Part shown: piece by piece, positions 5,068 to 19,778 of the stretch | How the letters are laid out: each line of letters starts with the position of its first letter | How positions within the stretch are numbered: the first letter of the stretch is position 1 | Source of the DNA: an uncultured bacterium | GTDB taxonomy: Bacteria > Verrucomicrobiota > Verrucomicrobiia > Verrucomicrobiales > DEV007 | Length of the DNA: 64,000 nt | NCBI GenBank assembly: GCA_963977015.1 | Contig: CAXBMO010000003.1 | Span: 128,001-192,000 of the forward strand | Direction of reading: 5' to 3' | The notes under the pieces: generated by a model | The model's input: the letters and a program-made list of their open reading frames with translations, nothing else | The model's database searches: none | Told to the model about the DNA's origin: nothing | Position numbers and translations under genes: made by a program

Positions 5068-6120
5068 CTACTCGGATTCTTCGTCGTCCAGTTGATCGAG
5101 CGTCGTGAGGAGATCCAATGATCTCTGCAACGTCAGATCCTGTAGCGGAACGGTGTCAAATTTCGTGGTTTCGCCGCGGGAGCGTGTCAGATGGTAGTCG
5201 AGTTCCGGATCCGTTTCGTGAACAAGAGCTGCTTCGTTGATCCGCGGCCTTGCGGTCTCGAAGAGGTATCCCTGGATGGCTCCCGATTCGCTTGCGGCGA
5301 AGACTTTTCGTTTTGATTCGATATCCGGTGCGACATCAAAATCCGGTTGGACTCCTTGCTTGAAAAGCGAGGTGCCATCCGCGAGCAAGACCTCCGCGAC
5401 GGCGTATCGAAGCATCGTGTCTTCGCTGAGGGGAATGTAGTGATATTGAACCGTAAGTCCCTTCGTGGTTGCTCCGATCATGAAACAATCCCGGTTCGAG
5501 TCGATGCTCGCAGCGATAATTTCCCCGACGTTCGGAGTCTCCGGATCAATCAAGAGCAGGAGTTTCTCCCCCCTCCATCTTGTACTGGAAACTTGGGAAA
5601 AGAATAATTCCGGCCGAGTTTCCCCTGGATGCTGGATCTGGAAAAGCAGGGTGTTCGTCGGGACGAATCGATCCAGAATTCGCGCGGCAGCTTTGAATTG
5701 AGCCTCCGGAGCGGGAACGCGAAGATCGAGAATCAGGGTCTCGGCTCCAGCGTCTTCAAATTGAATCAGCGCTTGATCGAGCAATTCGACTTCATCTTCG
5801 CGATAGCTGGCAAAGCGCACATAACCAACGTCTTTGGTGATCGTCTCGCCCAAAAACCTGCCTTCTGTCCCTTTTTCTTCCTCCGAATGGTGTCGCGCCA
5901 CCAATTGAGCTCCATAAGACAATCGTCTCAGCAATCCTTCGAATGCGGCTTTGTTCAACTCATCATAGCTGAGAGCTTCCGGGCGAATGTAATCTCTCTT
6001 GAGAACGTGGAAGGCTTGTTGTAGGGCGTCCTGACTCAGTCCTTCAATTCGTTCATCTGCACAAAGCCATGGAGAACTTGTGAGGAACAAGGCGAGGGTG
6101 AGAGACCGTGTGAATCGCAT
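5068..6120 (-). CDS. Secreted S41 (tail-specific protease)-like protein, probably catalytically inactive
   Basis: Signal peptide; VGYVRF, LILDLR and GVQPD motifs of the CtpA/Prc fold, but the SASASE and GKG catalytic motifs are replaced. Confidence 0.75.
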   Translation of the reverse strand: MRFTRSLTLALFLTSSPWLCADERIEGLSQDALQQAFHVLKRDYIRPEALSYDELNKAAFEGLLRRLSYGAQLVARHHSEEEKGTEGRFLGETITKDVGYVRFASYREDEVELLDQALIQFEDAGAETLILDLRVPAPEAQFKAAARILDRFVPTNTLLFQIQHPGETRPELFFSQVSSTRWRGEKLLLLIDPETPNVGEIIAASIDSNRDCFMIGATTKGLTVQYHYIPLSEDTMLRYAVAEVLLADGTSLFKQGVQPDFDVAPDIESKRKVFAASESGAIQGYLFETARPRINEAALVHETDPELDYHLTRSRGETTKFDTVPLQDLTLQRSLDLLTTLDQLDDEESE

Positions 6121-6227
6121 CTAAGGAGTTTGCACCGAAACCCAGCAAACTGCCAGAGCCGTTTTTAGTTTGCGGAAATCTTAATATCGCGAAGAGAAAC
6201 GGAGTTCAGTCAGTCTAAAACGCGCCG

Positions 6228-6827
6228 GTGAAAATTCTGCCCCAACCCCATCGAGAGGAGAACAAGCCCACGAACCTCAAGCGGAGAAGATTTCTTCGCC
6301 AGGGAGTCTTTGTGGCTTCAGCGGCGGTTGCGGCGATCAATACAACAAGGATTGGGAATCATTTAAGGACCGACCGTTTTCGCCCATTGGTCGACGAAGC
6401 CGATTACGCGGCTTTTCTGGCGGGTCTGAATCTCCGTTACATCACGGCGCCGGAGGTCATCCGGCCTCATCGTAATGTCAGAAATGGCGTTGCGAACCGA
6501 TTGCCCCCGAAGTTGCTCTGGCGAAACCTTTCGAAGCCCCTTCGGGTGGTAGATGAGATTTGCACCCGGGCCGGGTATCGAATTGAACTGATCAACTCGG
6601 CATTTCGGACTCCCGCCTACAACGCAGAGTGTGTGGGAGCAGCGAAACGGTCCTATCACCTTCGGAATATGGCGATTGATGTCCGGTTCAATGCCGCGCC
6701 CCTGGAGGTGGCCAAGGTCGCGAAAGCCCTCCGCTCGGAGGGGGTTTTCAAAGGCGGGATTGGTGTTTACCCGTCGTTCATTCATCTCGACACACGTGGA
6801 AGGAAGGCGGATTGGGGAATTTCCTAA
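6228..6827 (+). CDS. Peptidase M15 / YcbK-like Zn D-Ala-D-Ala peptidase with Tat signal
   Basis: RRRFL twin-arginine motif; SAFR..AYN, SYH...AID and GGIGVY..FIHLDTRG Zn-ligand motifs. Confidence 0.85.
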   Translation: MKILPQPHREENKPTNLKRRRFLRQGVFVASAAVAAINTTRIGNHLRTDRFRPLVDEADYAAFLAGLNLRYITAPEVIRPHRNVRNGVANRLPPKLLWRNLSKPLRVVDEICTRAGYRIELINSAFRTPAYNAECVGAAKRSYHLRNMAIDVRFNAAPLEVAKVAKALRSEGVFKGGIGVYPSFIHLDTRGRKADWGIS

Positions 6828-6921
6828 CGGACCACTCTCTATTGACGTTGCGGATCATCAATGCTCGTGTTGAGGCGGGCCCAGCATTGGGTGGCGGCCT
6901 AGAAACACTCCTGATTTAACC

Positions 6922-7530
6922 ATGCGCATCGAGCTTGAACCGGCTCAGCGGCTTCTTCTTTGGCGATTGATCGCGGAGGGGGGCCTCTGTTGGCAGAAGC
7001 ATCTTCATCCCGCCCCGCGGCCATCTCTTCGCGGGCCCTTGGAGTCGGCAAGACTGATCCGGGTTTCGTCTCAAGGTCGGGAAGGAAACCGCATTGAGGT
7101 GACCGACCGTGGTTGGGCGTGGGCGGAGGAGAATTTCGGCGGAGAATTTTCCGCAGGAGGACCAATGATGGCAGAAACGTTGCAGCTGGTCCTGGAGGCG
7201 ATGGGAGACTGCCTTCGCAACCGGGACATCGCACTGTTTGAGGTGTTTGGGGCGGAACGTGGTATTGAAGAATCCATCAAACGTGCTTACAAGGAGCTGA
7301 GCAAAGGAAAGCGCAGTGTTCGCGTCAGGTTGTCAGAACTTCGGGAATTCCTGAAGCGACCAAAAGATGTCGTTGATAGTGCGCTTGGTAAAATGATGCA
7401 GAGTAAGCAACTCACTCTTTTTCGTCTGGATGATCCCAAAGAGGTGAAAGCCGCCGACCGCGAAGCTGCCTACCGAACGCCTTCAGGGACGGAACTGCAT
7501 CTGGTTTACCTGGGAGGTGCTCCCTCATGA
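6922..7530 (+). CDS. Hypothetical protein, probably two winged-helix-like domains; coupled to downstream ATPase
   Basis: 202 aa. L..ARLI...IEVTDRGW wing motif; second IKRAY..L...VRLSELRE.L....VDSAL module. ATGA overlap with the next gene. Confidence 0.7.
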   Translation: MRIELEPAQRLLLWRLIAEGGLCWQKHLHPAPRPSLRGPLESARLIRVSSQGREGNRIEVTDRGWAWAEENFGGEFSAGGPMMAETLQLVLEAMGDCLRNRDIALFEVFGAERGIEESIKRAYKELSKGKRSVRVRLSELREFLKRPKDVVDSALGKMMQSKQLTLFRLDDPKEVKAADREAAYRTPSGTELHLVYLGGAPS

Positions 7531-10376
7531 GCGATAAAAAGGCTCTGCAAACGGTCGATGCCTCCCAGTTTAGCTGGGCTTGTCGACTCAACGATGTTTG
7601 GTCCGATGTCTTGCACGATGTGGCAGGTCTTCACCCCAATTTGCGGGCGGAGTTTGAGCGGAAAATTGAAGGCCTTCTCGCCCAGCGTGACATCCAGTCC
7701 CCGCTTGGATGGGTGTTGTTGGGTGAAGGTGGTTCGGGAAAAACCCACCTCCTGAATGCTTTCCGTAGAATGGCGGTCGAGCGTGGCGCCTACTTTGTTC
7801 TGCTTGATCTAACCGATGTCAGAACGTTTTGGGAATCCGCCCTGCAAGGCTACATTGACTCGCTGCAAGAGGAGTGTGTTGCGGGGATTCCGCAGTGCCA
7901 ACTCGTATTGCAACGCCTCGTAACCGAGAAATTGGGGATCAAAAGCTGGGAGAAGCTGCAGGGCCGGCTTCGGGTTGATGAGGAAGTCGATGAGGCCACC
8001 AACGAATTGATTCAAGAGCTTTGGAAGAAGGATCGAAAAATCCAACCCTGTCAGCAGGATGTGATTCGCTGCCTTGCCTACCTGAATTCCGGCTCGTTTC
8101 AATTTTACAATCTCGGTGTCACCTGGCTCCAGGGTCAGGAGCTTGATGTCGACTCCCGCCAACGGCACGGATTTCAGCGGCCGGTCGAAGATCCGATCGT
8201 GATTGCAAGCGCGTTGTCCTGGGTCATGTCTCAAACGGCGCCCACCGTTCTCGCCCTTGATCAACTGGACGCGACGGTCATGCAGTTGGTCGCGAACTCG
8301 GCGGGCGAACCGGCGACTGACGAAGCCATGGCAGAAACGCTTCTCCTGGAAATTGGACGGGGCTTGTTGAGCCTGCGGGACAAATTGGGTCGAACCTGGA
8401 CGATTCTCTCCTGCCTGGAGCAAACTTGGGAGCAATTGCGTGATTCCCAATTGAAAACAGCGGTCGATCGATACGAAGAACCGCCCCGAGTTCTGAGTCG
8501 GATGAGCGATGAGGAAGTGATCTCCTCGCTGATTGCGCAGAGGATTGGCGCCGCCGCGAAGAAGGTTGGGTTTCAGCCCTCCTACCCGACGTGGCCGATT
8601 CATCCTGAGGCGATTGCAAAGATGGTCGGCGAGACGCCGCGGGATGTTCTGAAAATTTGCGAACGGCATCGGCGGGATTGTCTGGAGCGTTGTCGAGTGG
8701 ATGAACTCAAGCACTTTGAAAAACCCAGCACGATTCCCTCATCCGTGGAGGAAGCGGAATTGCAGCGACTGGATGAGCTGTATAAGAAGCGGCAGAGTGA
8801 GGTTGATCTCACTGAGATTTTTGCCGAAGAGGCTGAGGATAAGTTCTTTGCCCCTCTTCTCGATATGGCGGCGAGGCTTGCCATCGAAGAGAATTTTTCG
8901 TCGCTTCCGGCTGGCATAGACACTCAATTGGATGCTTCACTGCCATCGGGGCGCATCCGGCCCCTCCATGTTCGACTCCGGGTTATTTTCGAAAACGAAG
9001 GTGAGCGAGAGCAGCACTACTCCGTGCGCGTCCTCCAGAAAACCAATCACCGAGCCTATCTGGCCCGCTTGAATGCCGCGATCGTGGCTTCCGGGATCGA
9101 CGCCAGATTACCCTTTCGCCAACTTCGAATTATCCGGACCACCCCGATTCCGACCGGTTTTTTCACGGATCGTCTGAATCGTAAATTCAAGAAATTGGGA
9201 GGGTGCTTTATCTGCCCCGATGAGGACGAAGTCAAAAAGCTGGTCGCTCTTCGAGTGCTGCAGGGCGGAGGCTACGAAATGTTTAACGAATGGATTCACG
9301 ATCGTCGGCCCATATCGGAAATCGGTTTTGTTCGGGCAGCCATGCCTTGCCTCCAGATTTGGGGCGAAAAGAGATTCAACGAACTTCAGATTGGGGACTA
9401 CTCGCCCGAGTTGCCGAGTCAAATTGATCAGGATGAGTCCGAGGTTGAGGGCCAGGTGTCTCTTGGGCGGGCTGTGTTGGGCAAAGAGCTTCAACATTCG
9501 ATCTCGATTCCTGCCGAGGCTCTCAACGAGCATGGTGTCATTCTGGCGGGGGTTAAGACTGGGAGATCCGCGCTTCTGAAGCGAATTACCGAGGAATGCG
9601 CCCTCCTTGGTGTCCCTTCGCTCTTTATTGACCTTCGGGGGCGTGCTGATCTCGGTGAGCCTTGGCCGGCGCCTCCTGAGAGTTGGGAGATTGAAGATAT
9701 CCGGAAGGCGGCCCAGTACCATCAGATGGTATCCGTCAAAACTTGGGCTCCGTTTCTCGAAGGGGCACCCGATCTTCCCCGTGAAGTCAACGGCACAAAA
9801 ATCCTCGTTTCAGAACTGCTGCAAAAGCCGAAATCCGATCAGATTCCGATTTCGGTCGTGAATGCCATAGGGCTCGAGGCAGATGCCGATCGTCAAAAGT
9901 TCCTCATTGAGCTGTTCGAATCCGCGATTTCTTGGCTCAAGAGCGGCGGGGGGCGGAGTAGGGGGGCTCTGCAGGGGTTTATCGTGATCGATGAACTGGA
10001 CAGCTGCCTGGCAACCGCGAATTGCTCCAAGGTATTTCGTGAGCTGCTGAAGGTCGCGAGAGAAGCCGGTGTTGGAATTTTGTGTTCGTTTGAAGATGCC
10101 GCACAGATTGGCGGTGATGTCCTGGAGCTCTTTCAGACGCAATTCTTTGGTCGTGCCCATGCGCCGGGAACCATCTCCGCGATTCAGCGCGTTCTTCAGC
10201 AATGCGGCGGAGAGTCGAGCGAAATTGCACGCCTCTCACGCGGCGAGTTTTTTGTGCATCACCCGGAGATCAGCAAAGGAATCCCAAGCAAAGTTTATAG
10301 CCCGATCTGCCTTTCGCGGCATCCTCAGGAGGCGCTGGCTGCCAATGAGGTTCGAAAGCGAATCCAACGAGATTAA
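7527..10376 (+). CDS. AAA+-type ATPase fused to a degenerate HerA/DUF87-like domain
   Basis: Walker A GEGGSGKT, Walker B-like VLALDQLD, TPRDVL sensor. C-terminal HGVILAGVKTGRS...EECALLGV...IDL and IVIDE HerA-like motifs. Confidence 0.8.
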   Translation: MSDKKALQTVDASQFSWACRLNDVWSDVLHDVAGLHPNLRAEFERKIEGLLAQRDIQSPLGWVLLGEGGSGKTHLLNAFRRMAVERGAYFVLLDLTDVRTFWESALQGYIDSLQEECVAGIPQCQLVLQRLVTEKLGIKSWEKLQGRLRVDEEVDEATNELIQELWKKDRKIQPCQQDVIRCLAYLNSGSFQFYNLGVTWLQGQELDVDSRQRHGFQRPVEDPIVIASALSWVMSQTAPTVLALDQLDATVMQLVANSAGEPATDEAMAETLLLEIGRGLLSLRDKLGRTWTILSCLEQTWEQLRDSQLKTAVDRYEEPPRVLSRMSDEEVISSLIAQRIGAAAKKVGFQPSYPTWPIHPEAIAKMVGETPRDVLKICERHRRDCLERCRVDELKHFEKPSTIPSSVEEAELQRLDELYKKRQSEVDLTEIFAEEAEDKFFAPLLDMAARLAIEENFSSLPAGIDTQLDASLPSGRIRPLHVRLRVIFENEGEREQHYSVRVLQKTNHRAYLARLNAAIVASGIDARLPFRQLRIIRTTPIPTGFFTDRLNRKFKKLGGCFICPDEDEVKKLVALRVLQGGGYEMFNEWIHDRRPISEIGFVRAAMPCLQIWGEKRFNELQIGDYSPELPSQIDQDESEVEGQVSLGRAVLGKELQHSISIPAEALNEHGVILAGVKTGRSALLKRITEECALLGVPSLFIDLRGRADLGEPWPAPPESWEIEDIRKAAQYHQMVSVKTWAPFLEGAPDLPREVNGTKILVSELLQKPKSDQIPISVVNAIGLEADADRQKFLIELFESAISWLKSGGGRSRGALQGFIVIDELDSCLATANCSKVFRELLKVAREAGVGILCSFEDAAQIGGDVLELFQTQFFGRAHAPGTISAIQRVLQQCGGESSEIARLSRGEFFVHHPEISKGIPSKVYSPICLSRHPQEALAANEVRKRIQRD

Positions 10377-10382
10377 GAACGG

Positions 10383-12194
10383 TTACGATAGCTGCAACTG
10401 CGACAGCATTCGATAAAGGCCGTCGTGATCTTCAACCAACTGGTCATGAGACCCTTGCTGAATGATTTGCCCGTCACTGAGGACGAGAATCTGATCAGCG
10501 TTTCGCACTGTGGATAGCCGGTGAGCCACAATCAATGAAGTCCGATCGCGCATCAGATCGTCGAGCGCTTCCTGGACCAATCGCTCGCTTTCGGCATCCA
10601 ACGCATTGGTGGCCTCATCGAGGATGAGGACGGAAGGGTTGGCGAGAATCGCCCGCGCAATCGCGATTCGCTGCTTCTGGCCTCCGGACAGGCGAACGCC
10701 GCGCTCTCCGACCAAGGACTCGAATCCCTCGGGAAAGTTGTCGATAAACTCCAAGGCGTTGGCCCGCTTGGCAGCTTCCTTGATGTCTTCCTCGCTCGCC
10801 CCTGGCCGTCCATAGGCGATGTTCTCGTAAATTGATCCGCCAAAGAGCAGTACCTCCTGCGGGACAATCGCCGTTTGCCGGCGCAACCAGTCCAGAGGCA
10901 ACTCTCGCAAATCTTTGCCGTCGAGGGAGATGGAACCCTCTGTTGGATCAAAAAATCGCAACAAAAGCGAAATGATCGTCGATTTTCCGGCACCGCTTGG
11001 GCCAACAATGGCAATTCGTTGGCCGCTTTCGGCGACGAAGTTCACCTTTTTCAAGACCTCGACGTCTGGTCGACTCGGATAGGAAAATCTGACGTTCTGA
11101 AACTCAACACGACCGCTTGCGCGGCTGTCCGGCCGCTTTCCAGCGTCAGACCGGTCGGTTTCCGGTTCTTCCTCAAACAACTCTCTCAATCGATCGGTGG
11201 CCCCGACCGCTTTCTGGATGTTGCTCACGATTTCCGGCAATGCTGCAAATGCACCTCCCACAAAGGCTGTGACGAAACAAAATTTGGTGAACGCATCGCG
11301 AGCGATCTCTCCATCAACGAGAAGATGGGCCCCGGACCATACGACGAAGGTAATCGCTCCAAACAGGGCAAAAATGACCATGGCAACCATGATCGCCCTT
11401 CCTCCGATGAGCTCGAATGCCACCTTGAGGTACTTTTTCATCCCGGATTCGTAACGACGGGTCTCGTAGTCTTCGTTGGCAAAAGCTTTGACGTCGGCGA
11501 TGCCGTGGAGGGTCTCGTCAACAATCACGTTGGTTTCGGCAAGGAGATCCTGAGCTTCACGGGAACGTCCGCGAATCCGAAACCCGAACAATGAGATGGC
11601 GATCAAAACGACCGGCAGACTCAGCAACATGGTAAAGGTGAGTCGCGGGGAAAGGATGAAGAGAAAGGTTAATCCACCAAGAAGCATCACACATTGGCGT
11701 AGAAATTGGGGCGTGGTTGAGCAGAGGGTATCGCGAATCAAGCTCAAATCGGCAGCCAGGTGTCCGGAGATTTCCCCGACTCGACGCTCGTTGTAAAAAG
11801 CCATCGGGAGACGAACGAGCTTCTCATAGGTGTCCCGTCGTATATCAGCGACCGCCAAATCGCCAGCTCGCCCCAAAAGATGCATTCGAAAAAAGGTGAT
11901 GCAGGCCTGAATCGAAAGAATGATAAGAAGAGTGATGGCCACGCGGTTGACGGTGCCAAGGAGCGCTTCCCGACCTTCTGGGTGATCGCTGTTCATCGCT
12001 TCGCCAATCAATTCGCCCATCAGAATTGGAAACGCCATCGACATTCCGGCAGTGATCAACACGGCGATGATGCCGGGAACAAACATCATTTTGTAGCGGC
12101 CCAAGTAGGAAAACAGCCAAAGTGTTTTCTGCAGATTCTCGCGAGTGAGTTTGGCTTTTGGGACATCGTAGTCCTGTTGGTTGGGGCGCGCCAT
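10383..12194 (-). CDS. ABC exporter, fused permease/ATP-binding (MsbA-like)
   Basis: N-terminal TM helices; GPSGAGKS, LSGGQKQR, ILDEAT, AHRLST. Confidence 0.95.
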   Translation of the reverse strand: MARPNQQDYDVPKAKLTRENLQKTLWLFSYLGRYKMMFVPGIIAVLITAGMSMAFPILMGELIGEAMNSDHPEGREALLGTVNRVAITLLIILSIQACITFFRMHLLGRAGDLAVADIRRDTYEKLVRLPMAFYNERRVGEISGHLAADLSLIRDTLCSTTPQFLRQCVMLLGGLTFLFILSPRLTFTMLLSLPVVLIAISLFGFRIRGRSREAQDLLAETNVIVDETLHGIADVKAFANEDYETRRYESGMKKYLKVAFELIGGRAIMVAMVIFALFGAITFVVWSGAHLLVDGEIARDAFTKFCFVTAFVGGAFAALPEIVSNIQKAVGATDRLRELFEEEPETDRSDAGKRPDSRASGRVEFQNVRFSYPSRPDVEVLKKVNFVAESGQRIAIVGPSGAGKSTIISLLLRFFDPTEGSISLDGKDLRELPLDWLRRQTAIVPQEVLLFGGSIYENIAYGRPGASEEDIKEAAKRANALEFIDNFPEGFESLVGERGVRLSGGQKQRIAIARAILANPSVLILDEATNALDAESERLVQEALDDLMRDRTSLIVAHRLSTVRNADQILVLSDGQIIQQGSHDQLVEDHDGLYRMLSQLQLS

Positions 12195-12356: not shown

Positions 12357-12758
12357 ATGAATGCTGCGAAAGAGAAATCAACATTCCCAGCCTCCTTTGA
12401 TCCGGTCGTTGCTTTGCAGCGGGTTGGAGGAGATCAAGAGTTGCTCGCCATGGCGATTGATCTTGGAATTGGTAGTTTGCCGAGACTGATCAACGCAGTG
12501 CAGGATGCCCGTTCGGCGGGGGACGTCCAGGCGTTGGGAGATGCTGCCCATACCCTCAAGGGGATGGCTGCGACGTTTGAGGCTCGTCAGGTTGGGCCGT
12601 TGGCTGCTAAAATTGAGGAAATTGCGGGTGCTGGAGATTTTGAGAACGCCATGAAACTCATTCCGCAGTTGGAGGAAAAGACGAAGACCTTGGGCGAAGA
12701 TCTCGCTGAATTTGCTGATCGTTGCGAAACCGGCGATCTGCTTTCTCTGTCCTGCTAG
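12357..12758 (+). CDS. Stand-alone Hpt (histidine phosphotransfer) protein
   Basis: ALQRVGGDQELL N-terminus; AHTLKG phospho-His motif. Confidence 0.9.
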   Translation: MNAAKEKSTFPASFDPVVALQRVGGDQELLAMAIDLGIGSLPRLINAVQDARSAGDVQALGDAAHTLKGMAATFEARQVGPLAAKIEEIAGAGDFENAMKLIPQLEEKTKTLGEDLAEFADRCETGDLLSLSC

Positions 12759-12877: not shown

Positions 12878-14338
12878 ATGGGTGATATCAATCTCGGATT
12901 TAGTTTTGATGACGTCCTCCTTGTTCCGCAACGCAGCGGAATCCTTCCGTCGGAGGCCGATCTAACCACGTGTCTTACAAGCGACATTGGCTTGAACATT
13001 CCTATCGTGTCCTCAGCGATGGATACGGTTACAGAGGACGCTCTGGCCATTGCCCTGGCTCGAGAGGGTGGAATTGGCGTCATTCACCGCAATAACACGC
13101 CCGGTGAACAAGCGGACATGATCGCGAAGGTCAAGAGATCGGAAAACATGGTGATTTCCGATCCGTTCACTGTGACGCGAGAAATGAGCCTTCGTGATCT
13201 GGAGCGGGTGATGGAGCAAAAGGGGGTTTCGGGTTTCCCGGTGGTCGACGGGGAAGGGAAATTGCAGGGAATGGTGACGACTCGGGATATCTGGCAGATC
13301 GAGCATCCCGATAAGACGATCGTTGGAGAAGTGATGACGCCGCGGGAGCGCCTCATTGTCGGGAGTGCGAAAACGACTCAGGAGGAAGCCAAAAAGATGC
13401 TTTATCAGAACCGCATCGAGAAGCTTCCGCTGGTGGACGAGGACGAAAAGTTGGCAGGCCTGATTACCAGTCAGGATATTGAAAAGCGCCAGCAATACAC
13501 AGACGCCTCCAAGGATGGTCAAGGCCGTCTCAGAGTGGGGGGAGCTGTGGGCGTGGGCGGAGATGCGATTGAACGTGCTGCCGCGTTGGTGAGTGCCGGA
13601 GTCGACGCGCTTTTTATCGATGCCGCTACGGGACACACAAGCCGCGTTATGAATCAGATTACCCGGTTGCGCGAAAATTCAGATGTCCCGGTGGTTGCTG
13701 GTAACGTTGTCACCAAGGAGGGGGCTCGCGATTTGATTGATGCTGGTGCTGCGGCGATCAAAGTGGGCGTGGGGCCTGGATCGATTTGCACGACCCGCGT
13801 GATCGCGGGTGTCGGAGTTCCTCAATTTTCGGCAATTCTTGAAGTCGCCTCGGAAACCCGCGAGCGAGGGATCCCGTTGATTGCCGATGGTGGTGTGCGC
13901 TACTCCGGAGATATTGTGAAGGCGCTGGCCGCTGGAGCAGATGTTGTCATGTTGGGGTCGTTGCTTGCCGGGACCCGCGAAAGTCCGGGCGCGATGGTCC
14001 AGCACCAGGGACGAATGTTTAAGGAATATCGCGGAATGGGTTCGCTCAAGGCCATGCGCAAGGGATCGAGTGATCGGTATGGTCAGAATGCATCCGGGAA
14101 ACTCGTGGCCGAGGGCGTGGAAGGCCGGGTCGCTTATCGGGGGAGGCTGGAAGATGTTGTCTTTCAGCTTTTGGGTGGTCTGCGCTCCGGCATGGGCTAT
14201 GTAGGGGCTTCGAATCTCAAAGAATTGCGCACTGACCCTCGATTTGTTCGAATCACAACCGGTGGCCTCCGCGAAAGTCATCCGCATGACATCACGATAA
14301 CGGAAGAACCTGTAAATTACCAAAGCAGCAGTTCCTAA
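12878..14338 (+). CDS. guaB: IMP dehydrogenase (with CBS domains)
   Basis: [41 protein letters not shown]. Confidence 0.98.
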
Positions 14339-14382
14339 CCACGGTTCAATCAACCCGTTCTTAAACCAAAGTAAGCTTTTCA

Positions 14383-15894
14383 ATGTTGGATAATGCAATC
14401 GCCGTAATTGACTTCGGCTCCCAGTACACTCAGTTGATCGTCCGCCGGATCCGCGAACTCGGCTATTTCTCGCGCCTCTATCAACCCGAACAACTTCGGG
14501 AAACGGGGCGTCCCGCTGCGGTTATCCTGTCTGGTGGCCCGCGAAGCACGACGGAGGAGAACGCGCCGGATATCGACTTTGAATACCTCAAGGGGATGAA
14601 TGTGCCCGTTCTCGGAATCTGCTACGGGATGCAGCTTCTGAATCTCAAGTGGGGTGGTGCCATTTCTCCGCATACCACTCGTGAGTATGGTCCAGCAAAT
14701 CTCCGGGTTTTGAACGCGGAAGGGTTGTTGGCCGGAATCGGCGAGTCCCAAATTTGGATGAGCCACAGTGATACCTGCAAAATGCCAGAAGGGGCGACGG
14801 TTCTGGCGACCAATCAGGAAGGAACGCCAGTGGCATTAAAATGGGCGGAAGATTGGATGGGAATTCAATTTCATCCCGAAGTGACGCACACTCACGAGGG
14901 GGCGGAAATTCTTCGAAACTTCCTGGAGTTGGCGGAAAACCCGCCCCGGTTTGAGATGGAATCCTTCAAGGATCAACTGGTGGCTCAGGTGAAAGACGAG
15001 ATTGGCGATCACATGGTCGTTTGCGGAGTCTCGGGTGGGGTCGACTCATCGGTGTTGGCGGTTCTGCTTCACGAAGCGGGAGTCAATGTTCGCTACCTCT
15101 TTGTTGATAACGGTCTTCTCCGTAAAAACGAGGTCGAGGAAGTGGAGGCCCAGTTCAAGGGGGTTGGTGTCGAGATTGAAACGATTGATGCGAGCGAGAG
15201 ATTTCTCAGCGCGCTGGAGGGGGTTGAGGACCCGGAGCGGAAGCGGGAGATTATTGGGAACCTCTTTATTGATGTGTTCTTCGGGGCAGCAGGCCAAATC
15301 GATCGGCTTGCCCAAGGCACTTTATATCCGGACGTCATCGAAAGTGCTTCGAGTGGGTCGATTGCATCGAAGATCAAGACCCATCACAATCGCGTCGATC
15401 GCATCCTCGAGCTCAAGGCTCAAAACAAAGTCGTCGAGCCGCTTCATGAGCTCTTCAAAGATGAAGTTCGAGAGTTGGGCCGGAGTTTGGGGCTGAGCAG
15501 CGAAGTTGTCGGACGTCACCCGTTTCCGGGACCCGGTCTCGCGGTTCGTTGTCCTGGAGCGATCACGGCGCAAAGGCTTGAAGTCATTCGGGAAGCGGAT
15601 GCGATTTTCATTCAAATGCTGAAGAAGCACGGTCTCTATGACCAGGTTTGGCAAGCCTATGCGGCGGCTCTTCCCTGCAAAACCGTTGGCGTTAAAGGAG
15701 ATGAAAGGGCCTACGAGTGGCCCATCGTCCTGCGGGCGGTTTCGAGCATCGATGCCATGACGGCGGAATGGATCCGGTTTGAGCCCGATTTTCTTGCGGA
15801 GTTGTCGAACCGGATTCTCAACGAAGTACCCCATGTGAATCGGGTTCTCTACGACATTTCGACGAAGCCGCCTGCGAGTATTGAGTGGGAGTAA
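14383..15894 (+). CDS. guaA: GMP synthase (glutamine-hydrolysing)
   Basis: DFGSQYTQLI, GICYGMQ, QFHPEV, SGGVDS, HPFPGPGLA, KPPASIEWE. Confidence 0.98.
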   Translation: MLDNAIAVIDFGSQYTQLIVRRIRELGYFSRLYQPEQLRETGRPAAVILSGGPRSTTEENAPDIDFEYLKGMNVPVLGICYGMQLLNLKWGGAISPHTTREYGPANLRVLNAEGLLAGIGESQIWMSHSDTCKMPEGATVLATNQEGTPVALKWAEDWMGIQFHPEVTHTHEGAEILRNFLELAENPPRFEMESFKDQLVAQVKDEIGDHMVVCGVSGGVDSSVLAVLLHEAGVNVRYLFVDNGLLRKNEVEEVEAQFKGVGVEIETIDASERFLSALEGVEDPERKREIIGNLFIDVFFGAAGQIDRLAQGTLYPDVIESASSGSIASKIKTHHNRVDRILELKAQNKVVEPLHELFKDEVRELGRSLGLSSEVVGRHPFPGPGLAVRCPGAITAQRLEVIREADAIFIQMLKKHGLYDQVWQAYAAALPCKTVGVKGDERAYEWPIVLRAVSSIDAMTAEWIRFEPDFLAELSNRILNEVPHVNRVLYDISTKPPASIEWE

Positions 15895-15982
15895 TTCGGG
15901 CTTTTTCTCCCCGAAGTTAATTCGCAGTACTTAATTACTTGCAATCCCATCCTTTCTGACTCTGTTAGGATCAGGTCTGGCT

Positions 15983-17725
15983 ATGTTAAAGCGACTGATC
16001 CTCATCTTCTTTGTCTGTAATGTGCTGGGATTTGCTCTGTTGAGCCATCGTTGCTCAGGCGATGGCATTGAGGGGCGCTTGGAGGCAATCGTGAAGAAGG
16101 AAGTTGAGGCCGCGAGCGAATACCGCCGCGTTCGCTACGAGACCCGGGATCTGGATCTTGTCCTGACCGGCCACGTCCCCACGGGAGTCGCCCGACGCGA
16201 ACTTCTCGAGGGTATCAACAAGGAATTACCCTTTGGGAGGGTTCGCTCGTCGATCGAGATTGTGCCGCCGGTTCCTGCAAGTTTGAGGGCGACTCTTGGC
16301 GAAGGGATTATGCGGTTGGAAGGTAAACTTCCTTCCAAGTCCATGATTCAGAGTTTACAGGATCAGGGCCGCGAGATTGGCTTCAGCGTCCTTGGGCATG
16401 GATTGATTTCGGCGGAAAACGTTGTTGAACCGGCCTGGGCCAGCGGTGTTGGAACGTTTGTGGCGGAGTTTTTTGCCGACGCAGACGAAGGCTTTCTGGA
16501 GATCGACGACACCAAATGGCACGTCAGGCGCCAGGTCGATACCCCGGAGCAGGCTCAAGAAATCCGGGAAACGGTCCGTCTCGCCGTTCCTCAAAGTCTT
16601 GCGCTCATCGATGAAATTTCGATTCGACCGCCGGACCAACCCAGCCAATTGACGGTCGAGAGGGTAGGGGGAACGCTGGTCGTGTCAGGAAAGGTTCCCG
16701 GTGAGGCTCATCGCGCCTTTGTCGCGAAAGCGGTTTCTGAAACGCTTCAGGAAAATATCAGCAACGAAATATCCCTCGATCGCAAAACCAAACCGCCGAC
16801 TTGGATGACCGCCCTTCCGGGTATCTTGTCGGTACTCTTTGATCAGGGGAAGGATCAGAAGTTGGAGATCAGCGGAACCGAAATTCGACTTTCCGGTCAG
16901 TTGGCCACCAAGGAGGAAATAGAAGAACTCATGCTGGTTGCCGGTAGTGCGTTTGGTCCCGGATTTGTGGTAGAGAATGCCTTTGAGGCGGTTTCTGCGT
17001 TACGTCCTCCTCCGCCTCACTTGGAGTGCAAGGTCAAGTCTTCGAACGAGAGCATTACCCTGATGGGGATTGTGCCCGACGCGATTGCTCGGGATCTCAT
17101 CATCGGTGCGTTTCAGCGATCCTACCCAAAGGCTGGGATCGAAAGCTCCGGCCTCAAGACGGACTCCCGAGTGGAGGCTCCGATCTGGTTCGAGGGATTT
17201 CTTCAACTGGTGAGCACTTTTCCTGTCTTTTTTGAAATGCCGCCTTCTTTGTCCGTCGCTGAGAAGAAGATCGATATTTCAGGCAAAACCAATTCGCGAA
17301 TTTCCCATGCGGCTGTGGGAATGAAGCTGGATCGTCTTTTTGGGGATCGTTTTTCGGTGGAAAATCGCACCACGGAACCCAGCACAAAGGTTCCTGACCA
17401 TGACGACTGGCCGCGTCGCGCGATTTACTTTGAAATGGGCTCAAGCCGAGTATCGAGCACTCAAGCCGCCGGAATTGAGGAAGCCGGTCTGGATTTCCAA
17501 AAAGCTGGCGAATTCGCGGTGGTTCTGATTGAGGGGTTTGCCGACAAGTCGGGTTCTCGCGAAGTGAATCTGGCGGTGGGTAGCCGACGTGCTCACGCCG
17601 TGCGGGATTCGCTCATCGCCCAAGGCATCCCCTCTTCATCGATTCGGATGATGGGCGTAACCATTGCTGAATCCAGCAGTAACCCGGACCGCGACCGGCG
17701 GGTGGAATTCACCGTTGTTCCCTGA
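15983..17725 (+). CDS. Membrane-anchored multi-BON-like/OmpA-domain protein (ArfA/Rv0899-like)
   Basis: N-terminal hydrophobic helix; repeated LxGxVP...P.W modules; C-terminal OmpA_C (IYFEMGSS, GFADKSG, NL..GSRRAHAVRD.L, RRVEF). Confidence 0.85.
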   Translation: MLKRLILIFFVCNVLGFALLSHRCSGDGIEGRLEAIVKKEVEAASEYRRVRYETRDLDLVLTGHVPTGVARRELLEGINKELPFGRVRSSIEIVPPVPASLRATLGEGIMRLEGKLPSKSMIQSLQDQGREIGFSVLGHGLISAENVVEPAWASGVGTFVAEFFADADEGFLEIDDTKWHVRRQVDTPEQAQEIRETVRLAVPQSLALIDEISIRPPDQPSQLTVERVGGTLVVSGKVPGEAHRAFVAKAVSETLQENISNEISLDRKTKPPTWMTALPGILSVLFDQGKDQKLEISGTEIRLSGQLATKEEIEELMLVAGSAFGPGFVVENAFEAVSALRPPPPHLECKVKSSNESITLMGIVPDAIARDLIIGAFQRSYPKAGIESSGLKTDSRVEAPIWFEGFLQLVSTFPVFFEMPPSLSVAEKKIDISGKTNSRISHAAVGMKLDRLFGDRFSVENRTTEPSTKVPDHDDWPRRAIYFEMGSSRVSSTQAAGIEEAGLDFQKAGEFAVVLIEGFADKSGSREVNLAVGSRRAHAVRDSLIAQGIPSSSIRMMGVTIAESSSNPDRDRRVEFTVVP

Positions 17726-17733
17726 CTGATACG

Positions 17734-17967
17734 ATGACGGATTTCTTATTAGCCGACGGCATCTCATTTACCTATTTTTGGCCACAACAGCTTTTGGCTT
17801 GGTTCCTGTGGGGATTTCTTTTTGCTGGAATCGGAGCCTCCGTGGCTTGGCGCCGCTGGCACAAACTCAAAGCCAGCGCCGATGAGGTTGAGTCGGATTT
17901 GAAGCGACTGAGACTTGAACAGACGCGGCTCCGTGGCCTGCTGCGAGACCATCAAATCACCAAGTGA
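17734..17967 (+). CDS. Small single-pass membrane protein (ArfB-like)
   Basis: 77 aa; one TM helix (LAWFLWGFLFAGIGASVAW) followed by a short coiled coil. 8 nt after the OmpA gene, GTGA overlap with the next gene. Confidence 0.7.
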   Translation: MTDFLLADGISFTYFWPQQLLAWFLWGFLFAGIGASVAWRRWHKLKASADEVESDLKRLRLEQTRLRGLLRDHQITK

Positions 17968-19778
17968 TCGCACTCATTGAAATCGTCCATCTGCTTTTAA
18001 GCCAGTCAATCTGGCCCTGGCTCGGCGTGCTGGCGTTCGGAGCGATAGGATACTGGTATGGTTATGTTTCCTGGTTTGTTTCGAGACGCAGACTACAGGT
18101 TCTGGTCAGCGAACGAAAACGGTTGGAGGCTTCAATCGCCACGATGCGGAAAGAACTGGGAAATCAGAGCGAGGTTGTGTTGACGGGAGAACGCTCGGAC
18201 GATCCCGATTACGATGATTTCACCGTCCTGCCCGGAATTGACACCTTTGCCTGTGCCCGGCTCCATCAAAAGGGGATTCAGTATTTTGACCAACTTGCAG
18301 AGCTGGAGGACCTGGATGGAGAAGAGCTGGAGCGGTTCCGCCTGAGTTTTGGAATTGGGAAATTCCAACTCGAAGAATGGCGTTGGGCTTGGGACGAGGA
18401 AATCGAACGAGAGACAAGCAGTGCCACACAGCCTTCAGAGCTCAAGGAGGGGCCCAACGTCGAGATTTTACCCATGCTGGGCCCGGTGTTCAAAGCAAAA
18501 CCCGCCGAGACGGACCAATTGACCTTGATGGATGGCATCAGTTTGGCAATTGAGGAGCGGCTTCACCGGAATGGAATCTTCCTTTTCTCCCAGATCGCTG
18601 CTTGGGAGGAGCCGGCGCTGGAAGACATTGAGCGCAAGGTCGCGCTGCCAGTTGGCGCCATCAAGGCCCGGAGATGGAAGGAGCAGGCCCAACTGCTTGG
18701 GGCTTGGGTCGAAGGACTTGCAAGTGAACGGTTTGTCGCGCCGCAAATCGTGGATCACAGAAACGTGATGGAATCGAGTTTTAGAGGACAAGCGGGACTT
18801 CGCGTCGATCAAGCCCTTGGCATGGTGTATGATTTTGAGCCCGACATCGTCGATAAACTCACTGATATTCCAGGAGTTGGTTCTGAGGTCCAGCAGCGGT
18901 TGCACCAATTGGGAGTTTTTCGATTTCGACAAATCAGTTCCTGGTCCACGCCGGTCCTTTGTGAAATTGCCAAAAGGCTGGAGATCGACCATCAGGTGGT
19001 TGAAAGCGAAAAGTGGATCGCGAACGCCGGCCTACTGGACCGGAAGAAATACTCCGCGAGCAAACTGTGGGATTCTGCCCGGCCGACGAAATCCGAGATT
19101 AAAGACGGGATCCGGTCCCAGTTTGAAGCGGAAGATCTGAAAGCAGATGAGGATTTGGGAATCGTCTACCAGGATCGTCCTGATCATGCGGATGATCTGG
19201 AATCGCTGGGGAGTTTGACCGTCAGCCAAATTTTTACGCTCAATGCCTCCGGAGTGTGGTGTTTTCGCCAGATTGCGACGTGGTCAGAAACCAATATCGA
19301 TACGTTCGCTGAACTGTTGGGGATCTCGCCAGAGCTGATCTATCACGAAAATTGGCTCGGGAAAGCTTTGGGATCGGAGTGCAAGGCTTCGCAAAGTCCC
19401 AGCAATGTCGAGTATGCGATTTCCTCCCAAAGCCTCTTGCGCCAGGGCGCGGATCTGGACGAGCGGTTTGGCCTGGTTTATGCGCAGGAACCGAGCCAGG
19501 TGGATGACCTGCAAAAGATTCGCGGAGTCGGCCCGAAACTTGAGGAGCGTCTCAAGGCCTGTGGGATTTATCAATTCCATCAAATTGCGTTGTGGACTCC
19601 TGACGTCGCCCAACAGTTTGCGGAACGTTTGCCCGGCGTCAAAGGTCGCCTTCTCAACGATCGATGGCAGGAGCAAGCCAGAGCCCTTCATGAGCTGACG
19701 TTGCTCTCGCCGCTCAAATCATCAGATCGTAACTATGACGCCGACGAATCAGATGTTCACCTTACCGCTGAACCGTAA
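17964..19778 (+). CDS. Membrane-anchored protein with five helix-hairpin-helix (COG3743/DUF4332-like) repeats
   Basis: N-terminal TM helix; five copies of DDL..I.G(V/I)G..LE..L...GI..F.QIA.W. Confidence 0.8.
   Translation: MIALIEIVHLLLSQSIWPWLGVLAFGAIGYWYGYVSWFVSRRRLQVLVSERKRLEASIATMRKELGNQSEVVLTGERSDDPDYDDFTVLPGIDTFACARLHQKGIQYFDQLAELEDLDGEELERFRLSFGIGKFQLEEWRWAWDEEIERETSSATQPSELKEGPNVEILPMLGPVFKAKPAETDQLTLMDGISLAIEERLHRNGIFLFSQIAAWEEPALEDIERKVALPVGAIKARRWKEQAQLLGAWVEGLASERFVAPQIVDHRNVMESSFRGQAGLRVDQALGMVYDFEPDIVDKLTDIPGVGSEVQQRLHQLGVFRFRQISSWSTPVLCEIAKRLEIDHQVVESEKWIANAGLLDRKKYSASKLWDSARPTKSEIKDGIRSQFEAEDLKADEDLGIVYQDRPDHADDLESLGSLTVSQIFTLNASGVWCFRQIATWSETNIDTFAELLGISPELIYHENWLGKALGSECKASQSPSNVEYAISSQSLLRQGADLDERFGLVYAQEPSQVDDLQKIRGVGPKLEERLKACGIYQFHQIALWTPDVAQQFAERLPGVKGRLLNDRWQEQARALHELTLLSPLKSSDRNYDADESDVHLTAEP

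Follow-up and report, generated by a model that had tools for sequence, protein, structure and literature searches.

Does a gene pair that carries the ATPase core of a putative antiviral machine still defend its host when no effector is encoded beside it? Such a pair lies near the start of the stretch analyzed here, 64,000 nucleotides of an uncultured bacterium of the Verrucomicrobiales (positions 128,001 to 192,000 of contig CAXBMO010000003.1, assembly GCA_963977015.1; hereafter the window), and consists of a small gene for a protein with two winged helix-turn-helix (wHTH) domains and a large gene for a double ATPase. A previous sequence-only reading had proposed it as a candidate defence or DNA-sensing system. 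Comparison with its relatives leads us to favour, with moderate confidence, the view that the window pair arose by reduction from a three-gene operon, with loss of the effector, and that its products would form an ATP-switched DNA-binding complex which does not cut DNA and probably does not pump it.

The gene pair is a real two-gene operon for a DNA-binding protein and a double ATPase. Both open reading frames (ORFs) and the ATGA overlap reported earlier were confirmed: the ORFs run on the forward strand from 6922 to 7530 (202 amino acids, aa) and from 7527 to 10376 (949 aa), each starting with ATG, and in the sequence CTCCCTCATGAGC, read directly, the ATG of the large gene occupies 7527-7529 and the TGA of the small gene 7528-7530. 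A GGGAGG stands 9 nt ahead of the ATG of the large gene, and the ATGA coupling is also kept in G001 and G002, two further genomes of the same genus. The G+C content is 0.54-0.56 across the pair against 0.50-0.57 in the surrounding 20 kb, and a scan of 6100-10600 gave 0 promoter-like sites and an uninformative 4 terminator-like sites, compared with 5.4 expected by chance. The flanking genes are unrelated to the pair, as had been noticed before: malQ, mdh, an S41 and an M15 peptidase, a convergent ABC exporter, an Hpt protein, guaB and guaA. The pairing is not due to chance: in each of the 75 relatives' loci with a called large ORF, the wHTH gene immediately precedes the large gene. Features of the pair are collected in Table 1.

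Table 1. Features of the gene pair, in window coordinates.
Feature	Position	Strand	Basis
Tandem winged-helix (2 x wHTH) protein, 202 aa, fast-evolving putative DNA-binding partner	6922..7530	+	ORF, AF2 model, fold matches
Translational coupling: GGGAGG (7512-7517) and ATGA start/stop overlap (7527-7530)	7512..7530	+	sequence
Orc/Cdc6-type AAA+ ATPase with lid, residues 1-395 (probable)	7527..8711	+	Pfam, residue conservation
N-terminal Walker A, GEGGSGKT	7722-7745	+	motif
N-terminal Walker B, LALDQLD	8250-8270	+	motif
Helical hairpin, predicted restriction endonuclease (REase)-like alpha/beta domain, then three short helices and linker, residues 396-655	8712..9491	+	AF2, Foldseek, VIA-align
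Conserved middle-domain residues H481, R483, E495, H497	~8961-9032	+	residue conservation
Degenerate HerA/FtsK-like P-loop domain, residues 656-949	9492..10376	+	PADLOC mad8, family profile
Walker A-like GVKTGRS (non-canonical P-loop)	9549-9569	+	motif
C-terminal Walker B, VIDELD	9984-10001	+	motif

Relatives of the pair were sought in one genome per species over 185,579 species, and the loci were analyzed with our own ORF calls and hidden Markov models (HMMs). The scan gave 127 relatives, and the 79 loci kept are spread patchily over eight phyla: Planctomycetota, Myxococcota, Thermodesulfobacteriota, Pseudomonadota, Actinomycetota, Cyanobacteriota, Chloroflexota and Verrucomicrobiota. A third gene, encoding ~360 aa and recognized by a DUF559/Vsr-type nuclease HMM, lies directly upstream of the wHTH gene in 53 of the 75 loci (54 loci overall); of the 22 loci that lack it, at least 5 are too short on the upstream side for a verdict. 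The C-terminus of the third protein was a DUF559/MTES_1575 (Vsr-like) endonuclease domain in all eight proteins scanned (DUF559, E 1.5e-12 to 2e-6), the protein matched PDB entry 3hrl at 1.7e-11, and D277, E288 and D290 were invariant in 30 of 30 aligned sequences. The large proteins of the canonical loci have 1030-1200 aa and clear DUF87 and HerA_C scores, and four of them matched the PADLOC model mad8 at 4e-29 to 8e-21. The canonical operon comprises a DUF559/Vsr-type nuclease, a tandem-wHTH protein and a double ATPase in which an Orc/Cdc6 AAA+ domain, a putative inactive REase and a HerA/FtsK domain follow one another. As a whole, the family appears to fit, feature by feature, the layout of the 'Orc/CDC6-coupled HerA/FtsK capture systems' set out in the sections on such systems in PMC10853773 (Nucleic Acids Res 2024;52:1005), a comparative-genomic class found in mobile gene neighbourhoods with a core of Orc/CDC6 ATPase, inactive REase, wHTH, active REase and HerA/FtsK (in one version with a 4-helical bundle insert); that prediction is computational. 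In the literature on DUF559, Vsr or inactive REase (iREase) proteins with HerA, we found no experimental test of the capture class.

The window copy departs from this canonical form at two points, the nuclease and the motor. The nuclease gene is absent from the locus, and a search of the window genome (G000; 6.9 Mb, 95.3% complete) with the nuclease profile was negative; the absence of an evident effector, remarked on before, thus holds for the window. In G001 and G002 the profile found only a DUF559 domain within unrelated ORFs of ~944 aa. These ORFs (L095, on contig C17 of G002, and L096, on contig C35 of G001) match DUF559 at their C-terminus with E ~1e-18, and the G001 copy contains one in-frame TAG.

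The C-terminus of the large protein is HerA-like, as had been stated before; its P-loop is non-canonical. The window protein matched Pfam HerA_C at E 0.02 only and PADLOC mad8 at 3.8e-11 over residues 655-913, and the family profile matched the solved HerA 4d2i at E 3.4e-15, YjgR (11kk) across the whole domain, and also TdpA and DptH. Walker A and Walker B lie 142 aa apart in the window and 140-142 aa apart in the genus, compared with a median of 246 aa over the 70 rows of the large-protein alignment, in which ~105 residues are deleted between the two motifs in the genus. K stands at the position of the Walker-A lysine in 66 of the 70 rows; the window, L018 and L020 have R there and L067 has H. 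The arginine is found both in the window and in G001. The TQ motif reads FE in the window; 65 of 70 rows have its glutamine, and the five rows that do not all fall within a six-row clade that has no nuclease. The Walker B DE is intact in the window protein.

This clade was defined by a maximum-likelihood tree of 69 rows, built from the 70 of 75 large ORFs that reach at least 900 aa after L068, which is N-terminally truncated, was dropped. The three rows of the window's genus stand on a long stem (1.08) and are sister to L020, L044 and L050 (Shimodaira-Hasegawa approximate likelihood ratio test, SH-aLRT, 93). None of these six rows has the nuclease, which is present in the outgroup L067 (98), and the topology would fit a single loss of the nuclease with later decay of the motor. 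Between members of the genus, identity is 43-45% over the HerA part and 70-75% over the N-terminal part, a C/N ratio of 0.58-0.63; in the sister nuclease-less clade the ratio is 0.61-0.74. On the other hand, the 92 canonical pairs of 50-75% overall identity have ratios of 0.82-1.56 with a median of 1.18 and none below 0.8, and among all 1953 canonical pairs the 70 with a ratio below 0.75 each involve L052 or L056. The HerA domain of the window lineage is under relaxed constraint and diverges faster than the N-terminal half, whereas in the 92 canonical pairs it is usually the better conserved of the two. L052 and L056, both from Myxococcota, have a nuclease and intact motifs, yet a strongly divergent HerA domain (stem 1.03; Walker A context GSGKTTLALS). 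The gene tree as a whole does not follow taxonomy: Pseudomonadota rows are nested in Myxococcota, and proteins of Kitasatospora and Williamsia are near-identical. The latter two (L088, Kitasatospora arboriphila, and L093, Williamsia muralis; end branches 0.032 and 0.016) come from different actinobacterial families, which suggests either a very recent transfer or a mislabelled or contaminated assembly.

The N-terminal AAA+ ATPase is intact, in agreement with the sequence-only reading, and matched Pfam AAA_22 (E 6.5e-7) and AAA_16 (E 8.7e-7). Its Walker A K72 is K in 69 of 70 rows (the other being a gap), R315 is R in 69 of 70, and D245, Q246, D248 and R372 are identical in all 70. It probably belongs to the Orc/CDC6 family, a choice of clade that draws on general models and on weak similarities to BrxC/BrxD and Hda; the structural neighbours of residues 1-395 in the Atlas, BrxC/BrxD-like and AAA_16 clusters at template-modelling (TM) scores of 0.38-0.47, are a lead only.

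The small protein is likewise what it had been taken for. Its AlphaFold2 (AF2) model, built with 70 relatives, has a predicted local distance difference test (pLDDT) value of 93.1, residues 1-102 and 112-198 each superpose on winged-helix proteins with Z 7.0-8.2 (root-mean-square deviation down to 1.5 Å for the second half), and among the matches listed for the two halves all 50 of 50 rows are winged-helix proteins. Foldseek returned generic wHTH rows alone, and weakly (E >= 6e-3). No Pfam (best DUF6293_C, E 0.1), NCBIfam or PADLOC family was found for the protein, and its profile matched nothing below E 0.19 among PDB sequences. DndG, SspB and FokI were absent from the matches listed in the fold searches by Foldseek and superposition, a result compatible with a relationship to them. 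A profile search of 1.84 billion representatives gave 1004 clusters at E <= 0.001 and 484 at E <= 1e-10, and the length is mostly 200-240 aa among the 150 clusters listed. Within the genus the small protein is 49-54% identical, compared with 62-63% for the large one. A co-fold prediction of the small protein with residues 1-655 of the large protein (score 0.01, mark 0.32) bears neither way.

Both ORFs are intact in all four genomes of the genus, a contig end cutting the large gene of G003 at residue 790. The dN/dS ratio is 0.10 for the large gene (estimable in 1 of 6 pairs) and 0.08-0.17 for the small gene (2 of 6), and dS is saturated in the other pairs. The gene pair is under purifying selection and is not decaying as a whole.

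Between the two ATPases lies the alpha/beta domain for which a PD-(D/E)xK fold had been suspected, and the fold matches point the same way, though weakly. The AF2 model of residues 395-655, built with 66 relatives, has a mean pLDDT of 89.7 and shows two long helices followed by a core in the order alpha-beta-beta-beta-alpha-beta. The best Foldseek rows were MspJI, EcoT38I, PaqCI and AspBHI (E 7e-3 to 3e-2), and VIA-align, which is independent of Foldseek, placed VC1899, Can2, EcoRI, BspD6I and SfsA at the top (Z 5.9-6.5), its best matches, with Cdn1, SgrAI, LlaBIII and McrC among them, covering Z 5.2-6.5 overall; nearly all best matches are restriction-endonuclease folds. Searching PDB sequences with the domain profile gave nothing meaningful. 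H481 and E495-x-H497 occupy the positions of the D and the ExK of PD-(D/E)xK enzymes, and H481, E495 and H497 are kept in 64-69 of 70 rows. The model thus suggests a REase-like domain without the canonical D...(D/E)xK residues, and PMC10853773 classes the domain inserted after the AAA+ core, in its treatment of the capture systems, as an inactive REase.

How might such a complex work? For the canonical form, the model given in the capture-system sections of PMC10853773, and repeated where PMC12839542 deals with HerA/FtsK capture, proposes that the Orc/Cdc6 and HTH parts localize the apparatus on invader DNA, which HerA/FtsK pumps towards the nuclease. Binding to foreign DNA and settling on it would accordingly fall to the wHTH protein and the Orc/Cdc6 ATPase, pumping to the HerA/FtsK motor and cutting to the nuclease. 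The window lineage has lost the nuclease gene and, from the HerA/FtsK domain, the ~105-aa insert, the Walker-A lysine and the TQ motif; its wHTH partner, Orc/Cdc6 ATPase and REase-like domain have stayed intact under purifying selection. Because the nuclease and the motor features are lost and the recognition parts are kept, what is left would be an ATP-switched DNA-binding complex unable to restrict by itself. Its most likely mode of action would leave DNA uncut: it would occupy or block particular DNA, or have a regulatory role for the host.

Several points weigh against this reading. The mechanism of the canonical form is itself a prediction, and assignment to the capture class rests on matching features, not on accessions. 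The Walker-A lysine is kept in the genus member L017 and in the sister-clade rows L044 and L050, both Walker B residues are kept in five of the six nuclease-less rows (D 5/6, E 5/6), arginine at the lysine position need not abolish nucleotide binding, and the HerA domain, at 43-45% within the genus, is still conserved and so not free of constraint. As for the weapon, a non-homologous nuclease could be encoded elsewhere, or one could lie in the unassembled 5% of the genome. The matches of the middle domain to REase folds (E >= 7e-3, Z <= 6.5) are in the range in which a match may mean no more than a shared arrangement, and its H481, E495 and H497 could form an unusual active site. Finally, 16 further loci without a detected nuclease have canonical HerA motifs, so the absence of the nuclease, as detected, is not always tied to decay. 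A second nuclease family was sought among 40 flanking proteins of 11 such loci, and nothing was found save a weak RNase_HII match. Upstream of the small gene in L074, L078, L080, L083, L094 and L036 there are same-strand ORFs of 170-470 aa without a Pfam family; such ORFs in nuclease-less loci might be divergent or alternative effectors.

Of the other explanations, the one that survives best is that the host has taken over the pair after loss of the weaponry, for example as an ATP-dependent DNA-binding regulator or a chromosome-organizing factor. Its appeal comes from the genomic setting. Full-length homologues (E = 0, 62-80% identity) were found in four of four genomes of the window's genus. 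The M15 peptidase stands upstream of the small gene in three of these (G000, G001 and G003), the ABC transporter stands downstream of the pair in two of the three with downstream sequence, and the 62-63% identity of the large protein lies within the range of the neighbours (S41 69%, M15 48%, ABC 84%). Within the genus the pair is inherited vertically in a largely conserved housekeeping context, so the objection that the sequence-only reading had itself raised to a defence role, vertical inheritance in a fixed housekeeping setting, is borne out in part, at the level of the genus. In G001 a gene for a YhgA-like Transposase_31 protein (L014:4804-5862) lies just beyond the S41 peptidase, where G000 has mdh; the synteny is otherwise shared. 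In the sister clade, a histidine kinase with PAS and HATPase_c domains follows the large gene directly in both loci with downstream sequence (L020:13323-14723 and L050:13054-14409). The two kinases are 48% identical, though the genes upstream differ (radical SAM, GT2 and DUF2064 versus ABC permeases and purH), and their adjacency may be a signalling link for the effector-less variant.

Against a takeover by the host, full-length homologues were not found in the 37 genomes of other genera of the same family and order (41 related genomes were searched), so the pair is not a housekeeping function conserved at any depth; these 37 genomes gave 15 weak matches (E 5e-5 to 8e-4), all within ORFs of 484-883 aa and limited to part of the C-terminal domain. 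Neither a kinase nor another conserved partner adjoins the pair among its neighbouring genes in the window, and nothing points to a specific host process. We regard this explanation as unlikely. A bolder form of the effector-less reading is possible and is put forward tentatively: after loss of the nuclease and of motor activity, selection would have kept the pair as a non-destructive, ATP-switched DNA sensor serving the host, and the six-row clade would be a defence system in the course of domestication, wired to a PAS kinase in the sister lineage.

A second explanation is that the pair still works as a stand-alone defence, with the middle domain acting as the nuclease through H481, E495 and H497 or with an unlinked effector being recruited, and with the arginine P-loop still serving as motor or switch. 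The nuclease folds among the best matches of that domain, the retention of its three residues in nearly all rows, the intact Walker B DE of the window copy and the purifying selection on the pair would all be expected from it, and the wider family is patchy over phyla and found in variable contexts like mobile defence genes. However, a separate nuclease, in which D...ExD is invariant, is still encoded in 53 of 75 loci of relatives whose large proteins have this H/E/H middle domain too, so the middle domain is evidently insufficient as a nuclease. The domain is inactive also in the classification of PMC10853773, as far as its capture-system sections go; moreover, it is precisely where the nuclease is lacking that the HerA part diverges fastest, the pair is passed on vertically within the genus amid housekeeping genes, and no PADLOC system model fits. 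Such a stand-alone defence is, we think, quite improbable. That the pair is a non-functional remnant heading for loss, as the lost effector, insert and ATPase motifs and the fast divergence of the C-terminal third might suggest, is hardly credible given that both frames are intact and stop-free throughout the genus (in G003 as far as residue 790) despite saturated dS, dN/dS is ~0.1 where estimable, every invariant residue of the N-terminal ATPase is kept, and the ATGA coupling persists in G001 and G002.

Returning to the effector-less reading, we asked what remains of the proposed link to defence. For the family as a whole, the patchy spread, the variable contexts, the non-taxonomic tree and the joining of nuclease and ATPases in one operon would be evidence in favour of a defence role. 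The defence interpretation may be applied, as a prediction, to the canonical three-gene relatives; the window copy is without the nuclease and has a degenerate HerA domain. An association with defence islands, suggested earlier as a check, gave no clear signal at the 25 relatives' loci inspected. Their 147 neighbours were scanned without a background control, so we make no claim of enrichment. By Pfam they were mostly metabolic and unknown genes, with toxin-antitoxin genes in three loci (L038, L048 and L055), conflict-type genes in L026, L031 and L055, and a transposase fragment in L081. Eleven of the 147, in eight loci, matched PADLOC models at E <= 1e-8, mostly at the level of domains (SNF2, UvrD, Ser/Thr kinase, methyltransferase and transposase HTH), the remaining matches being to the LmuB, HEAT-ARM_XIII and PDC-S12 models. 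Among 72,556 plasmid records only 3 were matched by the protein, and two of these 3 are replicons of at least 1.5 Mb; among 50,697 phage records there were 0 matches. For a defence role, these neighbourhood and mobile-element results are neutral or unfavourable. The locus L031, from a Sorangium sp., combines a wHTH and double-ATPase pair without a detected DUF559 nuclease with a conflict-type neighbourhood: its flanks encode a 1283-aa SMC/LmuB-like AAA_23 protein (5112-8963), a 1290-aa WD40 protein (13398-17270) and a CHAT protease-like gene product (17417-18253).

Other genes of the first 20 kb of the window are recorded here for completeness. The start of the window truncates a PSCyt2/PSD1 (DUF1549/DUF1553) protein at 55-2094, a stand-alone Hpt phosphotransfer protein is encoded at 12357-12758, guaB-guaA occupy 12878-15894, and a 604-aa protein with repeated helix-hairpin-helix motifs is encoded at 17964-19778.

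The canonical three-gene operon is a predicted 'DNA capture' immune system that so far exists as a computational proposal, and the window clade offers a natural dissection of it, since it shows which core is self-sufficient, presumably the DNA-recognition module. It also provides a ready-made negative control for phage-challenge work and a small and tractable example of the fate of a defence system that has lost its weapon.

Among known systems, several share single parts with the window pair. The BREX proteins BrxC and BrxD have the same type of ATPase: one relative has a weak Pfam BrxC_BrxD match (E 0.0048), and the Atlas neighbours include BrxC/BrxD-like clusters (TM 0.38, again a lead only). 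On the other hand, no PglX, PglZ, BrxA, BrxB or adjoining methyltransferase is encoded within ~7 kb upstream and 9 kb downstream, and PADLOC gave no BREX match for either window protein. MANTIS (Gao_RL) was considered and rejected, being, as its available description has it, built around a methyltransferase. With MADS the likeness is confined to one domain, mad8 being the best PADLOC model for the C-terminal domain of the window protein. MAD7/MAD8 form an ATPase-nuclease module required for defence, according to the part of PMC13662399 that treats them. The MADS operon has eight genes (mad1-mad8), with a methyltransferase, a kinase and two ATPase-nuclease modules, whereas here there is neither methyltransferase nor kinase and the neighbours are peptidases and an ABC transporter.

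The family profile also matches the ATPase cores of HerA-effector defence pairs and of archaeal HerA-NurA, in solved HerA chains (4d2i, 8wiv, 8xau, 9c1m, 8j4u and others), with E 3.4e-15 to 3e-10. Unlike in those pairs, the HerA core is preceded here in the same polypeptide by an Orc/Cdc6 ATPase and a REase-like domain, and the window encodes no effector. DndFGH/DptFGH resemble the family in their HerA/FtsK-type ATPase (DptH, PDB 7es4; family profile E 3.6e-5), in a DNA-binding subunit with multiple wHTH domains (DndG) and in nuclease activity. They differ in that the window pair has no recognized DndF or DndG homologue and no phosphorothioate modification genes, and in that the Orc/Cdc6 ATPase replaces the N-terminal domains of DndH. 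Both DndFGH/DptFGH and the Orc/CDC6-coupled systems are placed under 'HerA/FtsK capture' in the relevant sections of PMC10853773.

It is to these Orc/CDC6-coupled systems that the pair comes closest. The sequence-only reading had stated that the architecture matches no named system; this agrees with PADLOC, in which no model exists for the small protein and the large one is recognized by its mad8 domain only, but the architecture was already in print in the capture-system sections of PMC10853773. As described there, an Orc/Cdc6 AAA+ ATPase, a REase-like insert without canonical catalytic residues and a HerA/FtsK domain are joined in one polypeptide, and a separate fast-evolving protein has two wHTH domains; the relatives of the window pair in addition carry an active REase gene and an insert in the HerA/FtsK domain and share the patchy distribution and variable contexts. 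The window pair has in common with the class the probable Orc/Cdc6 ATPase and the fast-evolving partner with two wHTH domains, and its HerA/FtsK domain is homologous to that of the class, with degenerate catalytic motifs. An inactive REase between the AAA+ core and a wHTH, as in the class, corresponds here to weak REase-fold matches followed by three helices that are not assigned as wHTH. The window copy differs in having no active REase at the locus or found in G000, in lacking the ~105-aa insert of the HerA/FtsK domain, a candidate for the 4-helix bundle of the class, in the replacement of the Walker-A lysine by R and of TQ by FE, and in its vertical inheritance within one genus; a nuclease-less, motor-degenerate clade is not described in those same sections. 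Because the active REase and the insert are both missing, we file the window pair as a reduced variant of the Orc/CDC6-coupled HerA/FtsK capture systems rather than as a complete member.

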